Below are positions 8,064 through 64,000 of a stretch of 64,000 nt of DNA, one piece after another; the first letter of the stretch is position 1; each line of letters opens with the position of its first letter. The position numbers and the translations under genes are program-made. The notes under the pieces are model-generated. The model worked only from the letters and a program-made list of their open reading frames with translations. It made no database searches and was not told where the DNA came from. The DNA is from a virus, in the IMG/VR virus record IMGVR_UViG_3300048672_001165, positions 29,685 through 93,684 of that record; one strand, given 5' to 3'.

Positions 8064-11000
8064 ATGACAACCTATAGCCAACGAAGCCGAGACGGCCAGC
8101 CGTACGATTTCCCCCAAGGTTTTTCCCTAGGCGGCGTCAGTCTAGACGCAGATGACAGTACACGGTCTATCGGCCTACAAGTCCCGGGTCAAGATGCGAC
8201 CACGCTTTATACGTGGCTGGTACAAACCAGGCAACGCCTGAGCGCTGCACAACAAACACTTCCCTTTGCAACGCAGCAACAAATAACAGAAGGTGTCAGC
8301 AACGCTTTGTTGATCAGCCCGGCTTCTCTTAAGCAAGCGCTGGCTAGCCTCATTGGTGTAGCGCCTGTAGCGCTCGACAGCTTGGCAGAGTTTGCCGCAG
8401 CCATCGGAAATGATCCTAACTTGTCAACCACGGTTGATTCACAACTGGCTCAAAAGCTCAGTCTTTTAGGATCGACTGCAACCGGTCTGGCTGAAACACC
8501 GACACCAACCACCAACCTCAATAAAGCACAAGCCATCAACATCGAGTATTTGCTTGCTAAAATTGATGAAGCTCTGCTCAGTCTGAAAGCGTTGCCGAGT
8601 GCGCCTACACTGGACGGCTTAAGCCTAGCATTGATTGGTCAGACCTATACGCTTAACATGTCTGCTACCGCAGGTAGTGGCTTGACAATTGCTAGCTTTA
8701 ATGTGCTGATCAACGGTGGTAACTTACAAACGGTAGCTGCCACCAACGGCGCCGGTGTTCTTCAATGGACTGTCGTTGGTACTGAAAACCAAACGCTTAC
8801 TTTCAGTGTCGTGGCAGTTGATAACCGTGGCCGTACGGGCCCGTCTGCGACCCTGCAAGCCACCGCCACTGCAACAGCTATTTATACGCCTACCTTTGTC
8901 AGCCCTGCTCAGGATAACCAAGGTGGTCTATCTCCTCACCTGACCATTGAAACCAGTGCGTTCAGCTCCCCGTTTGTGAGCCAAACCCACGCCGCCACTG
9001 ATTGGGCCATCATCAATGTGTCTACAGGACAAGTGGACTGGCAGGCTTTAGCTGATACGGCTAACCTCACCACCCGAGCAATACCTCGCACGTATCTTAA
9101 GAACGCTACGCAGTATACCATCACGGTGCGTTACATCAGTGCATCAGGTCAGACCTCAAGCTGGGGAACGCTACACTTTGGCACTGCTGCTTCTCAAGCA
9201 GCGCCCTCGTCCGTGGCTGGTTTTGGATATGCCCTACCCGGCGAAAACTACGCTGCCACAGTCACGGCTGTGGCCTCTACTGCACTGGATACCACCATTG
9301 AGAGTTACTACTACTCTGTGGATAATGGTGTTACCAAGTTACCTAATTTGCTTGGTTCAGTCAACAATGTCATTGCGGCAGGATCAGACTTGACAGGTCT
9401 TTCTGGAACCATTGACATCCTCTTTTATGTTTACCGAAACTACTCTGGGTTTTCTCTGCCAGTTGCTAAATCGGTGGTAGTGGGCCAAACAACTGCTGGA
9501 GCTTTCCTGTTTCCTACAGAAGGCTTGACGGGGGTGAGTCAACACCCCACATTCACAGTGAGTTCATACACCAGCAACATCCCAACCGATAGTCACTTGT
9601 CCAGTACCTGGACAGTCACGGATGTAGCTTCTAATGAAGTCATTGATGAAATCCACAATAGTGTTTCTGCAAAAAACGCTTGGAGCCCCGTTGGGTTGAC
9701 GGCAGGTACACAGTACCGCGTATCGTGTATTCAGCACGGTACCATCTTTGTAGGCCTACCTGCCGTCACTGTGACGTGTACGACCACGACGACACCTGAG
9801 GCTTACTTGCCCAGCCAGGTCATTTCCACCACCAGTGAAAATAACGCCCAGATGGGCTTTAGTTTGTCGACCAATCAAGACGGCTCGTTGTTTGTTGCAG
9901 GTATTCCTGCTGCAACCATGTACACGTTCAGTACACCACACACCAACAGTGGCGCTGTTGATTTCATTAATACCGCCCTGGCGACGTCCATTAGAACCAT
10001 GTATGGTCTTAGTACGGACATCAATACGCCGATCATATACACGGGTTTAGCATCCGGCATGAATGTGTTTGGTAACGTCATGGTGTACAACACGCGTTTG
10101 CCTAACATTGTCATTGCCGGACGCAATTCATCAGGTACCATGGTGAGTACCTCTGACGTCTTGAACAGCGCCATCACGACTGGTGCGGATGGGTTGGCAT
10201 TTGTCAAGGGTTTTGCACAAACAGATATGGGTATTGACTTTGCTGTGAGTTCTGCAGCAGGTATCCAGTGGTTCCAAAACTCCTCTCTGGCAGCGACCAC
10301 CAGACCGTTCTTGTTGTCCAGCACAATTCCTCAAGACCCGCTGGGGTTGGGGATGTCGCTACAGAGTTATGGAGATAGTCTTTCCATCAGCGGAGATGGT
10401 AATCGCCTTGCTGTGAGTCTTCGTTGGGGTATCAATACCAACGTGGCCAGCCTGGTTGGGTTTGCCGTTTACGACTACAACTCAACCAACAATACGTGGT
10501 CTTCTCCTGTGATTAAAACAGGTATTGTCATGGGGGCGTGGAACTTACCCACTGAGTTCAGTGCCAGCAACTGGATGCAAATGAGCCGTGATGGTAAAGT
10601 CATTGCACTGGGTAACCCATGTAAGTTGTCTAACAATACAGGTAAAGGCGCTATCCAGTTTTGGGTCAGTGACCGAGGCTCTGACCTTTCAGGTGAGACC
10701 TGGACACTCCAGCAAACCCTGGAAGACGCTAGAGGCGATGCCATTGATGGCGGCATGTTTGGTTATAGCTTGGCCTTGTCATCTAACGGCAGTGTGCTGG
10801 TTGCAGCTTGTGCGGGTTATTTGAACGACAACGGCTGCGGTCGCGTAGACTTGCTGCTGCGCACAACCCCGACCTCACAAAGCTGGCGTCAAAAGAATTA
10901 CTCCATGGTGCCGACGGCAATCAATCCTGCTGAATTGACCAATGCTCACGTGGGCTCTGCCTTGACGATAAGTGCAGATGGTCGGGTAGCCATGGCGTCT

Positions 11001-19016: not shown

Positions 19017-20933
19017 TTAGGAAGCGTTTCGTTCAATGACAACAGACTCAAGTGCATACTTGACGTTGTTGACTGAACGTGTTTGAATCAGTTCAAACTG
19101 AACTTGATCAGTTTGAAACGTCATGTGAGTCGTCCAGACCCCTTTCGTGTCTGCAGGGTTATGTTGATAAGATCCAATCAAAACCCCATTTGCTCTCAAA
19201 TCAAAGTTAAGTGTTTGACCCGGCTCTACGTGTAGAGTGATGGTGATTTGATGACTTGTTTTAGCAGCGCTGGTGACCGCTTGCGTCCAATCTACCAAAG
19301 AGGTATTAACGCTAGAGCGTCTGCTTAAGAAGGAGCGCCCTACGCCTACTTTAGACAGCACAAAAGCAAACGGGTGGCTCACATACACCATGTTAGGGAT
19401 ATGTTCTACTATCGCTCCTGTACCAGCCCCAAAGGCGGCGTCTTGGCGACCAAAAGAAAAGTCAAAGTCTTGCCAACCACCAGAGAAGTAAGCGTTGGAG
19501 TTGACAACACTAAAGCAGTTGTGATGACGTTTGAAATAGTCATCTAAAACATCGATTTCATACAGACTCAATAGTCGGTTATAGACCAAGAATTCGATCA
19601 CTTGACCAGAGCTGTTAGGCAGAGCTTGCAAACCGACCAGTCCACCTGACTGGAGAGTCAGAGGCTTCTCTAGCCCAGACCACTTGCCGTACTGCCGAGC
19701 ATTTTGACTACTCAAAAAGTAGCTTTGATTCACATCACCCGTGCATGCAAAGTAAAGCACAGTTGCATCTTGGGCATGTCCTTGATAACTCTTAGCGTAA
19801 ACCATTCCGTTAATACGGATACCCACATCTTGAGTCAAGTCGATCTCAATAGTTTCGTGAGCTAGCTTGACTTGTCCTTTGAAGTCATTACTCACCACCA
19901 AGCACAAAGTGACTTCAGCACCCGTACTCACTGCTAAACCGCTGATGTCACTCACCGCACTACTCAGCGACAGGCCAGGCCCTTGAACAGTAGCCCCATT
20001 GAGCATCAAAGACCGAGACTGCCCCGTATGGTCTCTCCAGTACGTGGTATTGTTATCAGCCACTCTAGAGAAATCAAACCAGCAGGTCAAGTCCTGTATA
20101 TACTTAGGACTGTCAAAGTGCCTTTGAGTCAATGCCCACTTGGCAGCGATGTGTTTAAGGGCAAGCGCTTGCGTGATGTTTTGAAAGTATTTCTGTTGAC
20201 GACTATTCATCCACTTTTGCCTGACAAGCCTGTCTTGCAGCATGATGGTGCGGTCGACTGAATCGTCAATCAACGCTTTTTGTTCTAGTGTTTCTTTACG
20301 AATATTAAAAACTTGTTGTTCAATAGCGTCTGTGATGGACTGCTGCCTTTGATCAACAAGTTGGATCAACTCAGCATTCGTCGCCGGCCAGGCCACTTGT
20401 AAGATGTGGTCATGGATCGCCGTATCTTTGACATGCATGGCCGCTTCCAGTGCTTGTATAGGCACAGAGATCTGATCCATGTCGTAGTACGTGTAGAGTT
20501 GATGGATGTGAGGCGCAGGTGTAAACTGCTTGGGCTTTAAAATATCAGTGGTCCAATCAAACGTCTGATTTGGATCAAAGATAGCGTTGTACGCTGCAAA
20601 GAACGCCTGCCGGTTGGCGTACTCTGGACCACCCACATACTGCGCAGTGACGTTAACGCTGGTTGCAGTCACGCCAGCGGCCATCACAATGTTGCAGTGA
20701 ATTGCCTTTTTGAGTTCACGACTACTCAGACTCAGGAAGTCCCCCACATGGTAGTCCACCCCCTTGGTGAGCGTGACCCCTTGATCGGTTATGACGATCA
20801 AAGAGTTGCTATAAAAAGCACCCCACTCTGGAAGAATGAGTTTGTAAACAGGTACAGGGTAGTTCTCTGTTTTCAAGTTGCTTGCCGCTTGTCCTGTTTG
20901 GTCAAACGGTAGTAAAAACACAGTGTCTGTCAT
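19017..20933 (-). CDS. Virion structural protein
   Basis: PFDQTGQAASN, GAFYSNSL, AQYVGG and KPKQFTPAPHIH motifs; coiled coil and a beta-rich C-terminus. Confidence 0.65.
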   Translation of the reverse strand: MTDTVFLLPFDQTGQAASNLKTENYPVPVYKLILPEWGAFYSNSLIVITDQGVTLTKGVDYHVGDFLSLSSRELKKAIHCNIVMAAGVTATSVNVTAQYVGGPEYANRQAFFAAYNAIFDPNQTFDWTTDILKPKQFTPAPHIHQLYTYYDMDQISVPIQALEAAMHVKDTAIHDHILQVAWPATNAELIQLVDQRQQSITDAIEQQVFNIRKETLEQKALIDDSVDRTIMLQDRLVRQKWMNSRQQKYFQNITQALALKHIAAKWALTQRHFDSPKYIQDLTCWFDFSRVADNNTTYWRDHTGQSRSLMLNGATVQGPGLSLSSAVSDISGLAVSTGAEVTLCLVVSNDFKGQVKLAHETIEIDLTQDVGIRINGMVYAKSYQGHAQDATVLYFACTGDVNQSYFLSSQNARQYGKWSGLEKPLTLQSGGLVGLQALPNSSGQVIEFLVYNRLLSLYEIDVLDDYFKRHHNCFSVVNSNAYFSGGWQDFDFSFGRQDAAFGAGTGAIVEHIPNMVYVSHPFAFVLSKVGVGRSFLSRRSSVNTSLVDWTQAVTSAAKTSHQITITLHVEPGQTLNFDLRANGVLIGSYQHNPADTKGVWTTHMTFQTDQVQFELIQTRSVNNVKYALESVVIERNAS

Positions 20934-23904: not shown

Positions 23905-23931
23905 AAAGAAACCACATATCACCATCTTGTG
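23898..23931 (+). promoter_or_regulatory. Putative early (virion RNAP) promoter
   Basis: GCA-N12-CACATATCAC-CATCT-TG; same spacing as four other copies; resembles the phiKZ early TATATTAC motif. Confidence 0.6.
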
Positions 23932-29651: not shown

Positions 29652-29739
29652 AGACATTTCCATTATGAGGTCAACTGCTGGTGAGGACAGCTGACCTTTT
29701 CCTTTTTCCTCCTCCCAATTCACACACCAAGGTATCCAC

Positions 29740-32424: not shown

Positions 32425-32458
32425 GCAATTTTTTCTAATCACATATCACTAAGATGAA
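32425..32458 (+). promoter_or_regulatory. Putative early promoter
   Basis: GCA-N12-CACATATCAC-TAAGA-TG, followed by a leader hairpin and TTAGGAGT RBS. Confidence 0.7.
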
Positions 32459-32494
32459 GTAGGGAATGTATCTCTACAACTTAGGAGTATTACC

Positions 32495-32764
32495 ATGTCT
32501 GTCCGTCAAACCCTGAGCGTCTCGACTTCGGTCGAGACGTTTTTGTTTAACTTCAGCTCGACTTCGGTCGAGCTGGTTCTGAACCAGCGCGTGGCTGGCC
32601 GCGTTCGCGCGGCCACAGTCCGCGCTTTGTTCGCGGCCGCAGTGGCCGCCTTCTCGGCCGGCGCTGGCGCCGCCGAGGTGGATGACTATTGCGACAACGC
32701 GGTCGTCGCCGGGCTGAACTGGCAAGCGGCGATCGATGACATATTCACTGCAGCGATGCAGTGA
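32495..32764 (+). CDS. Small early protein on a hairpin-tiled sequence (may be a structured or dual-function RNA)
   Basis: AGGAG RBS, 89 aa; consecutive stem-loops including three UUCG loops and one GCGA loop. Confidence 0.5.
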   Translation: MSVRQTLSVSTSVETFLFNFSSTSVELVLNQRVAGRVRAATVRALFAAAVAAFSAGAGAAEVDDYCDNAVVAGLNWQAAIDDIFTAAMQ

Positions 32765-32859: not shown

Positions 32860-33207
32860 ATGTCTTTCTACGCTGATGTTCTTGCCGGGCGAGTTCAAAT
32901 GCCCCACCCGCAGTCATGGGACAGCGTGTTTGGGGGCTTTGACCAGATTGAGGGGGCGACTCAGGCCGCCTCGCTGGCGAAGATCCCCAGCTGCCGCTGG
33001 GGTATTCTGGCGTTCGACGACCAGAATACCAACCCGGTCGCCATCCCCATTTTCCCCCGGCTTGGGGGAAATGGCCTGGAAGAGGCGGTTCAGGCCGCCG
33101 CTGCGGTGGCCGGCATCTTGTACTCGACCACCCACGTGGTCGACGTGCGGCTGCGCGTGGCGGCTGTCCTGCCTGGCCTGCAAAGTCACGCCAGCTTCAC
33201 CTTCTGA
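32860..33207 (+). CDS. Hypothetical early protein
   Basis: TTAGGAGT RBS, 115 aa; hairpin-dense coding sequence. Confidence 0.65.
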   Translation: MSFYADVLAGRVQMPHPQSWDSVFGGFDQIEGATQAASLAKIPSCRWGILAFDDQNTNPVAIPIFPRLGGNGLEEAVQAAAAVAGILYSTTHVVDVRLRVAAVLPGLQSHASFTF

Positions 33208-33219
33208 AGGGGGGTTATC

Positions 33220-33903
33220 ATGACCCCCTTCAACGAGCCGCGCGTTTACGCGGCGGGGTTGTCTACGGACGACCCCACGCAGGCCTTCGCTTATGGCGAA
33301 GGCCTCTTCGTCCGGCAGCGCAACAAGGTGGCGTTCACTACGTCCGGCAATTTCATTGCCGAGCTGGCGCAGGGGCTCTGGTACCAGATCAATGGTACCC
33401 GGGTGAAAAAGCCCGCCACGGCGGTGATTAAGCCGGACATCGCAGTCCGGGCGTTTTCGCATGACCGCTACATGGCGGTGATGTCAGAAATCGCCACGGA
33501 CTGCGAAGCGGTCCAGGGGTTGCTGGAAGGACAGCCCCTGGTCCAGAACTTAGACCTAGTGCCGCGAATGGCACCGCATACGCCAGCTGCCCCGGGAGAA
33601 ATCCCGGAATTTAAGCTGGTGGCATCGCCGAACAGCGGCAGCTCCTTCACGTCGGATGTAAAGTTCGACGTGAAGTTTGGCAATCTGTCTTTCCGAGACG
33701 AGACGGGCAACCGCATCGTCGTGAACGACCTGCTTCCGTATGCGCAGGAGGCATTTCGATTTGACGTGACTATCATGAAGTTTCAGCAGCTGGCCGCCCT
33801 GGTGCGGCTGGCGCTGACCTTTAATGAAAGTCAGACGTCTTGGAAAATCCAATGGGTCTTCGTGCCGCAAACCGGGCTGTATTACAGCCTTGAGGCGGCA
33901 TAA
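33220..33903 (+). CDS. Hypothetical early protein
   Basis: 227 aa; RBS and start sit inside hairpin 33205-33232; hairpin-dense; ends in GCGGCATAA. Confidence 0.7.
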   Translation: MTPFNEPRVYAAGLSTDDPTQAFAYGEGLFVRQRNKVAFTTSGNFIAELAQGLWYQINGTRVKKPATAVIKPDIAVRAFSHDRYMAVMSEIATDCEAVQGLLEGQPLVQNLDLVPRMAPHTPAAPGEIPEFKLVASPNSGSSFTSDVKFDVKFGNLSFRDETGNRIVVNDLLPYAQEAFRFDVTIMKFQQLAALVRLALTFNESQTSWKIQWVFVPQTGLYYSLEAA

Positions 33904-33957
33904 AGCCCAGAGGCGTACAAAGGATTAAACCCCCTTTGTACGCCTCTTTATTTTTTC
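33895..33957. terminator. Bidirectional terminator
   Basis: GCGGCATAAA plus AGAGGCGTACAAAGG/CCTTTGTACGCCTCT stem between convergent genes. Confidence 0.75.
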
Positions 33958-34383
33958 TCACTTTTTCTTCTGAGAGGCCATGAATGAATCATAGTTCATG
34001 GCAGGCACACCAATGGTCATTTCATCAGGTGCCATAGAGACTTCTACAGTACTCTCATCGAGTTGAGGGGCGCTGCGGGCTGCTCCGTTTTCTACGCGGC
34101 CAATCGCTTTCAAACCACCTTGATCTAGCAAAGCAGCAATCAAACCAGCAGCTTGTGCATTGGCGTTAGCTGCTGTATCATCCACCTTCAGCTTAGCCAG
34201 TTGAATAGCAGCATGGTCCATATCGCGCAGCAAACTACCCAGCGCTCCTATTTTCTCACTGTGCATCTTGCCCAGGTCTTCACCTGCAGCAGCCACAATA
34301 GAGTTTACCAGCGCTTTTCTTGTTTGACGAGCAAAGCGCAAATCCACATCCGCATCAGCCAGATGACTCTTCAGATCCAACAT
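33958..34383 (-). CDS. Hypothetical protein
   Basis: ATG at 34383 has GGAGG 8 nt upstream; helical protein. Confidence 0.6.
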   Translation of the reverse strand: MLDLKSHLADADVDLRFARQTRKALVNSIVAAAGEDLGKMHSEKIGALGSLLRDMDHAAIQLAKLKVDDTAANANAQAAGLIAALLDQGGLKAIGRVENGAARSAPQLDESTVEVSMAPDEMTIGVPAMNYDSFMASQKKK

Positions 34384-35960: not shown

Positions 35961-37556
35961 ATGACCACCAACTGCATCGACACCACCACCATCGTCACCG
36001 ACGTCGCCTACGGTGGCGACCAGACCGGCATCAGTGCCGCCCCGGCGCTGACCCTGATCAGCAATCCGCTGGCCGGCGATGATGCCGGCGCTTCCTCGTA
36101 CGAAGCTCCGACTCCGACCACCGCTGCCCCGGTCGTCATCGCCAACGCCGCCTGGGCGCCGGTGGCACGGCCGTCCTACGCCGAGCCGATCCCCTACAAG
36201 GCCGGCCTGAGCACGGACGTGCAAACGCAAGCGTACGTCTACGAAGGCGAGCGGTATATCCGTCACAAGACGGTTGAGCCGTTTGTCACGTCCGGCAACT
36301 TCGGCAAGGAACGCAACGAGGGTAAGTGGTACAAGATCGGCGCAGCGGGCGCCAAGGTCGCTGGCGCCAACGGTACCGTCCTGGCCCCGGCCAAGCCCGC
36401 CGCTTTCAACGAGCCGGTGCAGTACGTTGTCGGCCTCGACACGGCCGACCACACCCAGCCGGTCGACGCGCCGGACGGCAACCGCTACGTGCGGGAACGA
36501 AAGGTGCCGGCGTTCATCGCCAGCGGCGACTTCGAAGCCGAACTGGCCGCCGGCAAGTGGTTCAAGATCCGCGGCCCCAAGCCGGTCAAGGCCGAAGTGA
36601 TCATGGCCCCCAAGGCCAAGACCCTCACCGGCGCTCCGGCTTCGTCGGAAGCCCTGCAGAAGCTGGCCGAGCGCGCCAACAACACCAACCTGGCCAAGCT
36701 GGTGTCCCCGGTGAAGACCGCGTCGCTGCTGCAAGCTGCAGCGGCCGGCTCCGGCCACAAGGCCAAGCTGGCTGGCCTGGTCGCCGCCTCGACCGGCAAC
36801 GATGAGTGGCGTGAGGACACCCTGAACATCTGGACCCGCTCGGCGCAGCCGGTCGGCCAGCTGCTGGACGTCTCCGCTGACAACAACGTCGGCCTCGACC
36901 TCGGCCTGGACAAGGACGGCAACCCGATCTCGGGCGGCACGTTCCGTACCGTCAAGGGTCTGGAACTCTGGCTGCGCCTGAAGGACCAGTCCTTCGAGGC
37001 GATGGTCCAGACGCTGCGCACGGCCAGCAGCGGCAAGCTGCACCATGTGGTCAAGGACCACCCGGAGCATTTCAGCGACCTGAGCCCGGAAATCATCGCG
37101 CTCATCGGCGCGGTGCTCTGGGACCACCTGCTCAAGGCCGAGCACGTCGCTCACCGTGCTGAACTGGCCCGCGCCGGCCAGATCGTGTCGAAGTACATGC
37201 ATGGTGAAGAGATCGACGAAGCCACCGGCGCCGTCCTGACGCCGGGCAGCTGGCGCCACACCACCGAGGCCTGGTGGATCGTCCCGCTGGCGCAAGCCAT
37301 GCAGGATGCGCTGCTGACCGCGGACGCCGAAGGTCGTGATGCGGCTGAAGTCGCCGTCGATTGGGACGGAACGGCCAAGCAGGCCTTCGAAGACAACAAG
37401 AAGCGCATCGAGCGCCGGCAGGCGCAACGTGTCGACTTCAATGCGCCTGCCCGGCGCAGCTCGTTCATCACGGACTACCGTGATCCGCCCAAGCCCAAGC
37501 ACGGCAAGAAGGTCAAGGTCGAGACGGCCGCGCCTGCCAAGAAGGGCAAGAAGTAA
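35961..37556 (+). CDS. Early protein with two tail-spike-N-like repeats, a NADAR-like domain and a basic tail
   Basis: Codon usage switches to C/G-ending at ATG 35961 (AAGGA RBS; ORF is open from 35826). Repeats EPIPYKAGL...GKWYKI and EPVQYVVGL...GKWFKI; DTLNIWTRS..PVGQLL...GTFRTVKGL.LWL resembles phage NADAR proteins. Confidence 0.65.
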   Translation: MTTNCIDTTTIVTDVAYGGDQTGISAAPALTLISNPLAGDDAGASSYEAPTPTTAAPVVIANAAWAPVARPSYAEPIPYKAGLSTDVQTQAYVYEGERYIRHKTVEPFVTSGNFGKERNEGKWYKIGAAGAKVAGANGTVLAPAKPAAFNEPVQYVVGLDTADHTQPVDAPDGNRYVRERKVPAFIASGDFEAELAAGKWFKIRGPKPVKAEVIMAPKAKTLTGAPASSEALQKLAERANNTNLAKLVSPVKTASLLQAAAAGSGHKAKLAGLVAASTGNDEWREDTLNIWTRSAQPVGQLLDVSADNNVGLDLGLDKDGNPISGGTFRTVKGLELWLRLKDQSFEAMVQTLRTASSGKLHHVVKDHPEHFSDLSPEIIALIGAVLWDHLLKAEHVAHRAELARAGQIVSKYMHGEEIDEATGAVLTPGSWRHTTEAWWIVPLAQAMQDALLTADAEGRDAAEVAVDWDGTAKQAFEDNKKRIERRQAQRVDFNAPARRSSFITDYRDPPKPKHGKKVKVETAAPAKKGKK

Positions 37557-58201: not shown

Positions 58202-58642
58202 ATGAGCAAGCATGAGCAATACGAAGCGATCAAGGTCGCCCTGGGTGCACAAGTCGAAGTCGTTGACGGTGGCGTGACCATCGCTGACGACCAGTACTAC
58301 GTGGTCGCCGAATCCGTCGCCAGCCTGAGCAAGGAAGTCATCAACCAGGTCAACGGCTACAACGGCGACTACCAGGCCGCCGCTGCTGTCGTCATGGGCG
58401 AGCAAGCCCTGAAGATGCTGGCCGGCGACGACAGCCTGTCCGAAGTGGTCGGCAACGCTGACGCCGGCGGCACCATGGTGACCAGCCTGACGCAGCGCGA
58501 GCGCACCTTCACCAACCCGCGCACCGGCGAGGCCCAGACCACCAGCGGCCACACCACCATCAAGGTCCGCACCGCCACGCCGGGCCTGCGCCTGGCCAAG
58601 CACGACCTGGAAGAGCTGCGAAAGACGCACTTCCCCAGCTGA
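58202..58642 (+). CDS. Early protein of unknown function, probably highly expressed
   Basis: AAGGA RBS, ATG 58202; extreme C/G-ending codon bias; followed by a hairpin and TTTTATGCC. Confidence 0.75.
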   Translation: MSKHEQYEAIKVALGAQVEVVDGGVTIADDQYYVVAESVASLSKEVINQVNGYNGDYQAAAAVVMGEQALKMLAGDDSLSEVVGNADAGGTMVTSLTQRERTFTNPRTGEAQTTSGHTTIKVRTATPGLRLAKHDLEELRKTHFPS

Positions 58643-62775: not shown

Positions 62776-62836
62776 TGACTTCTGGGTGGGTATGATAAAT
62801 ACCCACCTGCCTTTCTTATTCTACCGGAGAAAATAC

Positions 62837-63382
62837 ATGGATGAGTTGAAAAAGAAACTGCTATCGCCCATGACAGAAAGTCTCAACAAAGTCTTAAACA
62901 TGCTGACAGACTTATGGGGTCAGTTAGTAGGCGTGGCCAACGCATGTGCTCTTATTGATAAGCGTTTGGCTATCCTGCAAGAACAAGTCGATAGACAACA
63001 AACTCAACTAGACCAGCTTACCAACACCGTCAAGAGTTTGATGACCGCCACAAGTATTGATCCTATGCAGTTTAATAAGGCTTCTCAGTCAAGCATATTT
63101 GCTGAAGAATATACTGCTCTGCAAAAAAGCATGAGTGCCCATAATGAGCAACTCGTGCAAGCAGCAATGCAAGAAAACCTAGAACGCTTCAAAGCAGAAC
63201 AACAGCGCCTCTTAGCTATGAAAGAAGAAGAGATCAAAGCGCTTAAGAAACAAGTAAATGAAACAACAAAACGACCAGCCTCACCCCTAGAAAAAATAAC
63301 AGAGCCGCCAGTGCTTAATCACAAAAGCTCAAAACCTAAATGGAAAGTATTAGATATGTGGCCTAGTACCCCAAGAAAATAA
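62837..63382 (+). CDS. Coiled-coil hypothetical protein
   Basis: GGAG RBS before ATG 62837; heptad-rich. Confidence 0.6.
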   Translation: MDELKKKLLSPMTESLNKVLNMLTDLWGQLVGVANACALIDKRLAILQEQVDRQQTQLDQLTNTVKSLMTATSIDPMQFNKASQSSIFAEEYTALQKSMSAHNEQLVQAAMQENLERFKAEQQRLLAMKEEEIKALKKQVNETTKRPASPLEKITEPPVLNHKSSKPKWKVLDMWPSTPRK

Positions 63383-63448
63383 AAAAGGTAATAACCAAAG
63401 GTAGCTTTTATAAAAGCTTACCTTTTTCTTTTATGCTGGCATAAAAGA

Positions 63449-63493
63449 AAAACAAGATTGCAGAAATACGCAATCACATATAACAACTATGAG
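63449..63493 (+). promoter_or_regulatory. Putative early promoter
   Basis: AAAACAAGATTGCA-N12-CACATATAAC-AACTA-TG; leader hairpin and TTAGGAGT RBS as at 32425. Confidence 0.7.
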
Positions 63494-63539
63494 ATAAGGA
63501 ATGTCTTCTTATCCAAATGTGTTACTTTAGGAGTTTGAC

Positions 63540-64000
63540 ATGACCCGCATCGTTAACCTGACCCAGCATACCGGCACCCCGACTCAAAGTGAGCAGGGTC
63601 TCATCGAGGTCTCTGCCGAAGACCGCAGCGCCCTGACGGCGCTGCTGACATTCGATTCCCCCCCGGAAGCGGGGGAGATCGACGAACGTGCAGGCGCGAT
63701 CGTGCAGATCGCGCAGAAGTACGGCGCCACGCGCGCCATGATTGGAGGAGCCATGTGGCTCCAGGGCCCGCTGGAGCGGGCCCTGTTCTGTGTTCGAATC
63801 GAACCCGTCTACGGCTTTTCTCGGCGCGCAAGCGTCGAGGAGAGTCTTCCGGACGGCACCGTCCGGAAGGTGCAGGTATTCGAACACGTGGGGTGGGTCC
63901 GCCCGTATAAGGCGGACTTCGAAGTCCGCCCGGAGGCGCCGGCTCCGGCGGTGGAAGGTTGGGTGGTGGTTTGCCTCCCAACCAAACCCTGGGGGGGGCC
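63540..64000 (+). CDS. Csx20/Csx15-like protein (candidate ring nuclease), truncated by the window end
   Basis: Manual translation: MTRIVNLTQHTGTPTQSEQG...AMIGGAMWLQGPLERALFCVRIEPVYGFSRRASVEESLPDGTVRKVQVFEHVGWVRPY...; no stop before 64000; AGGAG RBS. Confidence 0.6.
   Translation, partial: MTRIVNLTQHTGTPTQSEQGLIEVSAEDRSALTALLTFDSPPEAGEIDERAGAIVQIAQKYGATRAMIGGAMWLQGPLERALFCVRIEPVYGFSRRASVEESLPDGTVRKVQVFEHVGWVRPYKADFEVRPEAPAPAVEGWVVVCLPTKPWGG

Follow-up and report, generated by a model that had tools for sequence, protein, structure and literature searches.

A Csx20-like gene at the end of a phage contig

The window analyzed here is a stretch of 64,000 nucleotides from IMG/VR virus record IMGVR_UViG_3300048672_001165 (positions 29,685–93,684), and the gene in question lies at its extreme 3′ end. 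An open reading frame (ORF) on the + strand begins with an ATG at 63540 and stays open through 63998, encoding a protein of at least 153 aa that is 3′-truncated at the contig end; the end of the window is also the end of the 93,684-base record, for which CheckV gives a completeness of ~35%. Read 5′ to 3′, the locus comprises the end of the upstream gene (63382), a terminator-like hairpin, a promoter-like box, a leader hairpin, a Shine–Dalgarno sequence and the ATG. The Csx20-like gene is its own transcription unit behind an early-type promoter. An initial annotation, made from the nucleotide letters without database searches, had described the ORF as an early gene resembling the Csx20-type ring nucleases of type III CRISPR systems, preceded by an AGGAG ribosome-binding site and an early promoter. 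Both upstream elements can be read in the sequence, and the protein motifs it named, NLTQHTGTPTQ (aa 6–16), AMIGGA (aa 66–71) and PVYGFSRR...LPDGTVRKVQVFEHVGW (aa 89–119), are all present and constitute the best-conserved blocks of a protein family.

The gene stands apart from its surroundings in base composition. GC content steps from ~0.35–0.45 to 0.64–0.66 exactly at the ATG, and the gene as a whole has a GC of 0.65 and a third-codon-position GC (GC3) of 0.76, against a contig GC of 0.50. The − strand ORFs that overlap it are of the kind that GC-rich coding DNA commonly produces. The contig closes with a run of eight G (63985–64000), a frequent sequencing or assembly end artefact, and the final codons of the ORF are untrustworthy. 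Searches for a continuation of the contig past 64000 gave 0 matches with an exact 41-nt pattern in viral contigs and 0 matches with an exact 30-nt pattern in metagenome contigs, and no relatives of an upstream 706-aa gene were found in viral contigs or the phage database.

Family membership and conservation

At E ≤ 1e-3 the protein has at least 475 homologs, the best of which reach E values of 1e-38 to 1e-30 with 43–57% identity in the N-terminal ~120 residues. Lengths are mostly 115–130 aa, and PF27247 is annotated on all 120 listed. An exhaustive profile search of a representative library recovered 2,602 clusters, 872 of them at E ≤ 1e-30. Membership in PF27247, which is named 'MJ1673' in the ESM Atlas clusters, was read from the precomputed annotation of all close homologs; a Pfam-A search with the window protein itself returned no family at E ≤ 10 because PF27247 is absent from the copy searched. 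The window protein likewise had no match in PHROGs or in a sequence search of the PDB, and the sole PDB match of the family profile, a designed repeat protein, was set aside as spurious. Alignment of 51 sequences revealed 20 invariant columns (N6, L7, T8, Q9, H10, Q16, T37, P42, A66, M67, G69, G70, L78, L82, R96, G106, K110, F114, H116 and G118), which take in the blocks NLTQH..T..Q, AMIGGA and P.Y.FS.R...E...DG.V.K...F.H.G. The ORF is confirmed as a real gene of a large family, far beyond chance.

Beyond aa 122 the protein continues into a Pro/Ala-rich tail, and the initial annotation had considered a fused domain likely. This expectation did not hold up: the tail is modeled with low confidence (predicted local distance difference test score (pLDDT) of 45–69), and BLAST found no similarity to it among 273 family proteins. 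Extensions of at least 30 residues past the last motif occur in only 36 of 270 family proteins (13%). A fused domain could exist, but the evidence to hand does not make it likely.

Relationship to Csx20

The only hidden Markov model (HMM) families that match the window protein are Csx20 models. NCBIfam NF040559 aligned with aa 86–119 only (E 1.7e-4, 21.9 bits), and the PADLOC Csx20 model gave an E value of 3.4e-6; all 51 aligned relatives also matched NF040559 (best E 5.9e-11), some of them spanning positions 2–121 of the 124-position model. The M. jannaschii control genome also contains a match to NF040559 above the cut-off, in a gene that we take to be MJ1673. For comparison, a bona fide Csx20 set of 27 proteins scoring 138–171 bits (NF040559 cut-off 70) was drawn from Thermoanaerobacteria and one Campylobacteraceae genome; no true Csx20 was found in 401 cyanobacterial genomes. 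Using hhalign, the family profile matched these 27 proteins at 95.8% (E 7.7e-9) over 110 columns, with aa 9–121 of the window protein corresponding to Csx20 positions 6–123 of 124, and a second profile–profile run gave 95.6% (E 1.2e-8). With Csx20 models as the sole HMM matches and profile–profile scores at this level over nearly the whole domain, the likeness that the initial annotation had pointed out proves to be real homology, and the motif pairs it listed (FSH.LT..Q, QGDFG and PxYATT.R...E...DG...F.H) coincide exactly with conserved columns of the alignment.

All the conserved columns that the two families share are retained in the window protein: H10, Q16, G70-A71, P89, Y91, R96, E100, D105-G106, F114 and H116. 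Among these is a polar set that is invariant or nearly so in both alignments, comprising (window/Csx20) H10/H7, Q16/Q13, R96/R98, E100/E102 and H116/H118; these five residues are candidates for binding or cleavage of cyclic oligoadenylate (cOA). Judged by homology, the product of the Csx20-like gene is a member of the Csx20/MJ1673 superfamily (PF27247).

The position of the protein within this superfamily was assessed using a tree of 71 sequences, in which a long, fully supported branch splits eight Csx20 rows from the other 63. Viral and cellular copies are interleaved, and the window protein lies among viral copies on a long, unresolved branch. Csx20 and a viral-type copy occur together in one genome in two cases, a Thermoanaerobacter sp. 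(G406; 157 and 36 bits, respectively) and a Campylobacteraceae genome (G410; 138 and 34 bits). By these comparisons the window protein is not a Csx20 ortholog and belongs to a separate, mostly virus-borne sister clade of PF27247. The initial annotation had spoken of a captured ring nuclease. A recently captured CRISPR gene is not borne out by so deep and mostly virus-borne a clade, or by the two genomes that hold both kinds; capture from a CRISPR locus would be an ancient event at best. The GC contrast suggests that this phage acquired the gene from a different GC-rich source, either a mobile element or a host.

Predicted fold and dimer

The AlphaFold2 (AF2) model of the window protein has a pLDDT above 93 over aa 1–120, and the corresponding Csx20 model a pLDDT of 91. 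Both are predicted to contain a five-stranded sheet flanked by helices in the same order, β1-α1-β2-α2-α3-β3-α4-β4-β5. The elements (E, strand; H, helix) lie at E4–6, H14–18, a short strand at aa 21–22, H26–36, H44–60, E65–67, H72–84, E88–102 and E108–120 in the window model, and at E2–4, H11–21, E26–28, H31–38, H44–61, E67–69, H74–86, E90–104 and E110–123 in the Csx20 model. A Foldseek search of the window model against the PDB returned no match at E ≤ 1e-3, with Cam1 bound to cA4 (cyclic tetra-adenylate) listed at E 0.033.

Homodimer prediction for aa 1–125 gave a score of 0.80, compared with 0.02 for the best of three controls. The dimer mark is reached by 20 of 30 proteins solved as one-chain pairs and by 1 of 23 solved single, a calibration that is rough (own alignment, AMP included). 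Contacts agreed at 100% across the dimer runs, the partner chain had a pLDDT of 91, and the predicted interface comprises aa 38–47, 68–79 (the AMIGGA helix), 91–93 and 117–124. The prediction supports pairing of the window protein as a homodimer.

Tandem duplication of the domain is frequent in the best matches (P0001, P0121, P0123, P0267 and P0268). In these, the first copy is degenerate, having lost the His and GG (NLTNF, AMISGA), and the second keeps NLTQH and AMIGGA; such proteins could be built-in asymmetric pseudo-dimers, which fits a dimeric working unit. Another relative, P0190 (291 aa), carries the domain with a C-terminal helix–turn–helix (HTH) fusion that recalls self-regulating fusions of anti-CRISPR (Acr) and anti-CRISPR-associated (Aca) proteins.

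Promoter, leader and predicted early expression

Coordinates of the features at the locus are collected in Table 1. The element assigned as a promoter follows the pattern YATATHAC-N5-TG, of which the contig holds 11 + strand copies, each intergenic and upstream of a gene; those within the window start at 23915, 32442, 35748, 58065 and 63477. A TGCA/TCCA box often lies ~18 nt upstream of this pattern. The TG at 63490–63491 is the probable start site. The early consensus of the AR9 virion RNA polymerase (RNAP), AAATATATATTAT-(6N)-G (PMC5312081), has the same geometry as the CATATAAC-N5-TG box found here. The motif thus resembles the early promoter of AR9/phiKZ virion RNAPs, and it suggests that the Csx20-like gene would be expressed early. 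The terminator-like hairpin that precedes the promoter (63400–63427) was not flagged by a simple terminator scan.

Table 1. Features of the Csx20-like locus, in window coordinates.
Feature	Position	Strand	Basis
Terminator-like hairpin and T-run closing the upstream gene (62786–63382)	63400..63427	+	By eye: GGTAGCTTTT / AAAAGCTTACC stem, one bulge, TTTTT
Early-type promoter-like element: GATTGCAG upstream box, CATATAAC octamer (63477–63484), N5, TG (63490–63491)	63456..63491	+	
Conserved 5′ leader hairpin, 8-bp stem, loop AAUGU	63490..63515	+	Four contig copies, compensatory changes
Shine–Dalgarno AGGAG	63529..63533	+	Direct reading; 6-nt spacer to ATG
Csx20/MJ1673-family domain, aa 1–122	63540..63905	+	Homology, alignment, AF2 pLDDT >93 over aa 1–120, predicted homodimer
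Pro/Ala-rich C-terminal tail cut by the contig end	63906..63998	+	pLDDT 45–69; last bases are a G-run

The leader hairpin occurs at contig positions 10680, 19753, 62144 and 93179, and all four copies fold alike; two base pairs of the stem vary in a compensatory way (G-C to A-U and A-U to G-C). The copies belong to a leader of ~50 nt that is common to four genes behind the early-type promoter (window 63490–63515 and 32458–32477; contig ~10676–10702 and 19749–19775), and in three of the four a second hairpin covers the AGGAG/ATG region. This shared leader could be a regulatory or stabilizing 5′ element. Genes behind the early-type promoter and leader appear as GC-rich islands (GC 0.55–0.69, GC3 up to 0.76) in a phage of 50% GC, located at window positions 32495–32764, 33001–34000, 36001–37000, 58300–58600 and 63540–64000 and at contig positions 19799–20140, which suggests a set of acquired early accessory genes.

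The phage and the distribution of relatives

The contig derives from a divergent phiKZ-like jumbo phage. It carries split multisubunit RNAP beta genes (phrog_2986, phrog_3148), a phiKZ-type virion protein and a prohead protease, and its best tblastn matches, at 35–38% identity, are to jumbo phages of Burkholderia, Xanthomonas and Ralstonia. The initial annotation had called the phage nucleus-forming. Nucleus formation is inferred here from the phiKZ-type RNA polymerase genes and the phage group; chimallin (phiKZ gp54) was not found in the contig, an absence that is uninformative in a ~35% fragment. The Csx20-like copy sits between phage genes and the contig end, with no type III CRISPR-Cas locus adjoining.

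Relatives are encoded on 191 IMG/VR contigs, and the nearest Atlas clusters are 67–82% viral. The family is not special to jumbo phages: only one of the 23 larger carrier records tested is phiKZ-like (L013, with a stand-alone 120-aa copy), and the cultured-phage tblastn matches were limited to Rhodothermus phage RM378 and Pasteurella phage Pm86. All-against-all clustering of 621 neighbor proteins revealed no conserved partner beyond near-identical contigs; the neighbors of viral copies are mostly unknowns, together with several DNA methyltransferases and replication or recombination genes. Among 34 cellular copies examined, one has cas neighbors. This copy, in a Hyphomicrobium metagenome-assembled genome (L111, 920–10372), lies in divergent orientation beside a type III-D-like locus encoding Cas10, Csx10/Csx7-like repeat-associated mysterious proteins (RAMPs), Csx19 and a TIGR03986 RAMP. 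Three copies in Saccharibacteria (L104 9998–13213, L109 and L110) are located near a 500–664-aa protein with a C-terminal Csx3 (Crn3-type) domain, with a MYG1-family exonuclease gene next in line in L104 and L109; this arrangement may represent a cOA-handling module in bacteria of the candidate phyla radiation (CPR).

Proposed function

The most likely function of the protein, to which we give somewhat better than an even chance, would be that of an early-expressed cOA ring nuclease that blunts type III CRISPR signaling. The proposal builds on what the analysis shows, namely homology, conserved residues, fold topology, a dimer by prediction, a transcription unit of its own and a distribution rich in viruses; the ligand, the catalysis, the timing and the effect on immunity are inferred. 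The ~120-aa Rossmann-like domain would pair into a two-fold dimer that binds cOA, with cA4 the most likely ligand by analogy with Csx20, and the conserved His/Arg/Glu/His set would cut the ring without metal. Loss of the second messenger, which type III Cas10 makes on sensing phage mRNA, would keep the cOA-activated effectors of the host off, and transcription from a virion-RNAP-type early promoter would put the enzyme in place by the time the first phage mRNAs become exposed.

AcrIII-1/Crn2 (DUF1874) is a proven viral ring nuclease anti-CRISPR. The job proposed here is the same, that of a small dimeric phage enzyme degrading cA4 against type III signaling, but the family is different, and a Pfam search of the window protein (E ≤ 10) gave no DUF1874 match. 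With Crn1 (Sso2081) and the CARF/SAVED proteins the window protein would have in common a Rossmann-like core and a two-fold dimer, but its structural match to CARF/SAVED reaches only Z 4.9–5.3, a level that does not establish membership by structure. Likeness to Csx20 extends to the same Pfam family, full-length profile homology, a size of ~120 aa, the same order of secondary-structure elements, a predicted dimer and the shared invariant residues (H, Q, GA, P.Y, R, E, DG and F.H), whereas the window gene differs in its phage location, away from a cas locus, and in its extra C-terminal tail. Csx20, encoded as a stand-alone protein in type III CRISPR loci, is a confirmed cA4 ring nuclease that also degrades cyclic triadenylate (cA3) at high enzyme concentration, and it has been reported in four cultured phage genomes (PMC12409355). 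Phage and prophage csx20 homologs in csx20-aca14 operons have been proposed to be co-opted counter-defense genes (PMC13551039). These are likewise virus-borne Csx20 relatives, and Pm86 is one of the two cultured-phage tblastn matches described above; beside the window copy, by contrast, no ribbon–helix–helix or HTH regulator gene was seen, though its downstream side is missing, and its setting is a phiKZ-like jumbo phage, where a conserved leader hairpin and an early promoter of the virion-RNAP type precede it.

Protection from nucleus-forming jumbo phages is provided by type III CRISPR with its cOA-activated effectors, and in Serratia this immunity acts via cA3 and NucC (10.1101/2022.06.20.496707). 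Type III is the one CRISPR type shown to reach such phages, via exported mRNA, and an early ring nuclease would be a direct answer to it. If confirmed, the protein would establish a second proven viral ring-nuclease family beside AcrIII-1 and assign a function to a very large, mostly viral family of ~2,600 clusters. In the literature collection searched, no paper on ring nucleases in nucleus-forming phages was found. The underlying idea has already been published for other phages, and the value of the present case lies in one more, incomplete example together with comparative data.

Several observations weigh against a Csx20-type ring nuclease. The protein is incomplete, its C-terminus lying beyond the contig end, and at 21.9 bits against a 70-bit equivalog cut-off for NF040559 it fails as Csx20 sensu stricto. 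Two elements that are invariant or nearly so in the 20–27 true Csx20 proteins examined are altered: IGGA stands in place of the QGDFGAT loop, a loss of three residues, and the basic RFRxY motif at the C-terminus gives way to G-W/F-V in the family (GWVRPY in the window protein). The viral-type family also has invariant residues of its own (N6, T8, Q9, T37 and K110). Given these differences in loop, tail and private residues, the ligand or the chemistry may therefore differ from those of Csx20. Structure searches with VIA-align yielded Rossmann-like matches of a generic kind and were not decisive. The top match of the window model is an aspartate racemase C-domain (Z 7.7, 99 aligned, rmsd 5.5), followed by further aspartate racemases (Z 7.4–7.5, 88–89 aligned, rmsd 2.6–2.8), most of which cover only aa 1–90 to 1–92. 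CARF/SAVED proteins cover the whole domain at Z 4.9–5.3, within the noise range of the search (Cam1 Z 5.3, 104 aligned, rmsd 4.5; Csm6 Z 5.3; Cap4 SAVED Z 5.3). For the Csx20 control model, in contrast, CARF/SAVED proteins and Crn1 are on top at Z 6.0–7.4 (SAVED-CHAT 7.4; Crn1 7YGH 6.8; Cap5 SAVED), and the same aspartate racemases rank lower (Z 5.3–6.3). By these models the two proteins share a fold class, with the window family appearing less like solved CARF/SAVED structures than Csx20 is. Finally, many family copies are found in Patescibacteria/CPR bacteria, and the gene neighborhoods of relatives are variable, not conserved.

Part of this evidence could be read as indicating a cyclic-nucleotide binder that is not a cA4 ring nuclease, either a sponge, the role suggested for Csx15, or a protein that binds or processes cA3 (the NucC activator), cyclic hexa-adenylate (cA6) or a product of a cyclic-oligonucleotide-based antiphage signaling system (CBASS). 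We consider this main rival doubtful, if credible. It would account for the altered loop, which is predicted to lie on the ligand side, for the missing basic C-terminal motif and for the private invariant polar residues, and it would suit the cA3- and NucC-dependent immunity of Serratia; the degenerate first copy of the tandem duplicates would provide a SAVED-like route to asymmetric ligands. There is also a precedent in the relative Csx15, once predicted to be a ring nuclease, which binds cA4 well but cleaves very slowly (PMC13148439). The same study argues, however, that sponging may be fruitless against type III systems, which typically make much messenger (PMC13148439), and the His/Arg/Glu/His set of active Csx20 is invariant across the viral branch, which favors catalysis over binding alone. 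A bolder variant, quite unlikely in our estimate, is that the virus-borne MJ1673 branch is a functionally distinct anti-signaling enzyme and more than a copy of Csx20, its shortened ligand loop and private residues retuning it, possibly to cA3, which arms NucC against nucleus-forming phages, or to broader cyclic nucleotides. The gene would then be a recurrent early-gene weapon of chimalliviruses, complemented in this phage by GC-rich early mRNAs behind a shared leader hairpin, whose tight folding would impede collateral RNases or recognition guided by RNA.

A role other than immune evasion, perhaps in nucleotide or RNA metabolism as a small regulator or enzyme common to phages and small-genome bacteria, seems unlikely. 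The abundance of copies in CPR genomes, the MYG1-family exonuclease gene adjoining a Saccharibacteria copy, the generic neighbors of viral copies without a conserved partner and the dominance of metabolic Rossmann-like domains in the structure search all speak for such a role, but the sole relatives at the sequence level are CRISPR-associated Csx20 proteins, a type III-D locus adjoins one copy and a Csx3-domain protein another three, and a patchy, virus-rich, context-free spread with interleaved viral and cellular copies is typical of accessory counter-defense genes. It is very improbable that the stretch is non-functional as a phage gene, whether because the assembly is chimeric at the contig end, because the fragment is decaying, or because the stretch specifies a structured non-coding early RNA and is open only by chance. 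Its place at the very end of a fragmentary contig that closes in a G-run, and the rise in GC of ~20 points at the ATG, would be in keeping with such an origin; however, the step lies exactly at the start codon behind a leader also used by three other, internal GC-rich genes, and the junction is therefore native. Across 120 aa no stop or frameshift interrupts the frame, and all family-invariant residues are preserved. The same explanation could draw on RNA folding, the coding RNA (63540–63998) being predicted to be unusually structured, with a z score of −7.2 against dinucleotide shuffles and −6.8 against synonymous-codon shuffles. In the synonymous-shuffle test, however, four ordinary phage genes used as controls gave z scores of −1.7 to −4.2 and six homologs in other phages −2.2 to −5.8, making the signal a matter of degree. 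The excess of RNA folding is real but graded and is no argument against coding, and the view of the stretch as mainly a structural RNA was set aside, since control genes also fold in excess. The coding RNA of an 89-aa early gene elsewhere in the window (32495–32764) gave a folding z score of −4.9.

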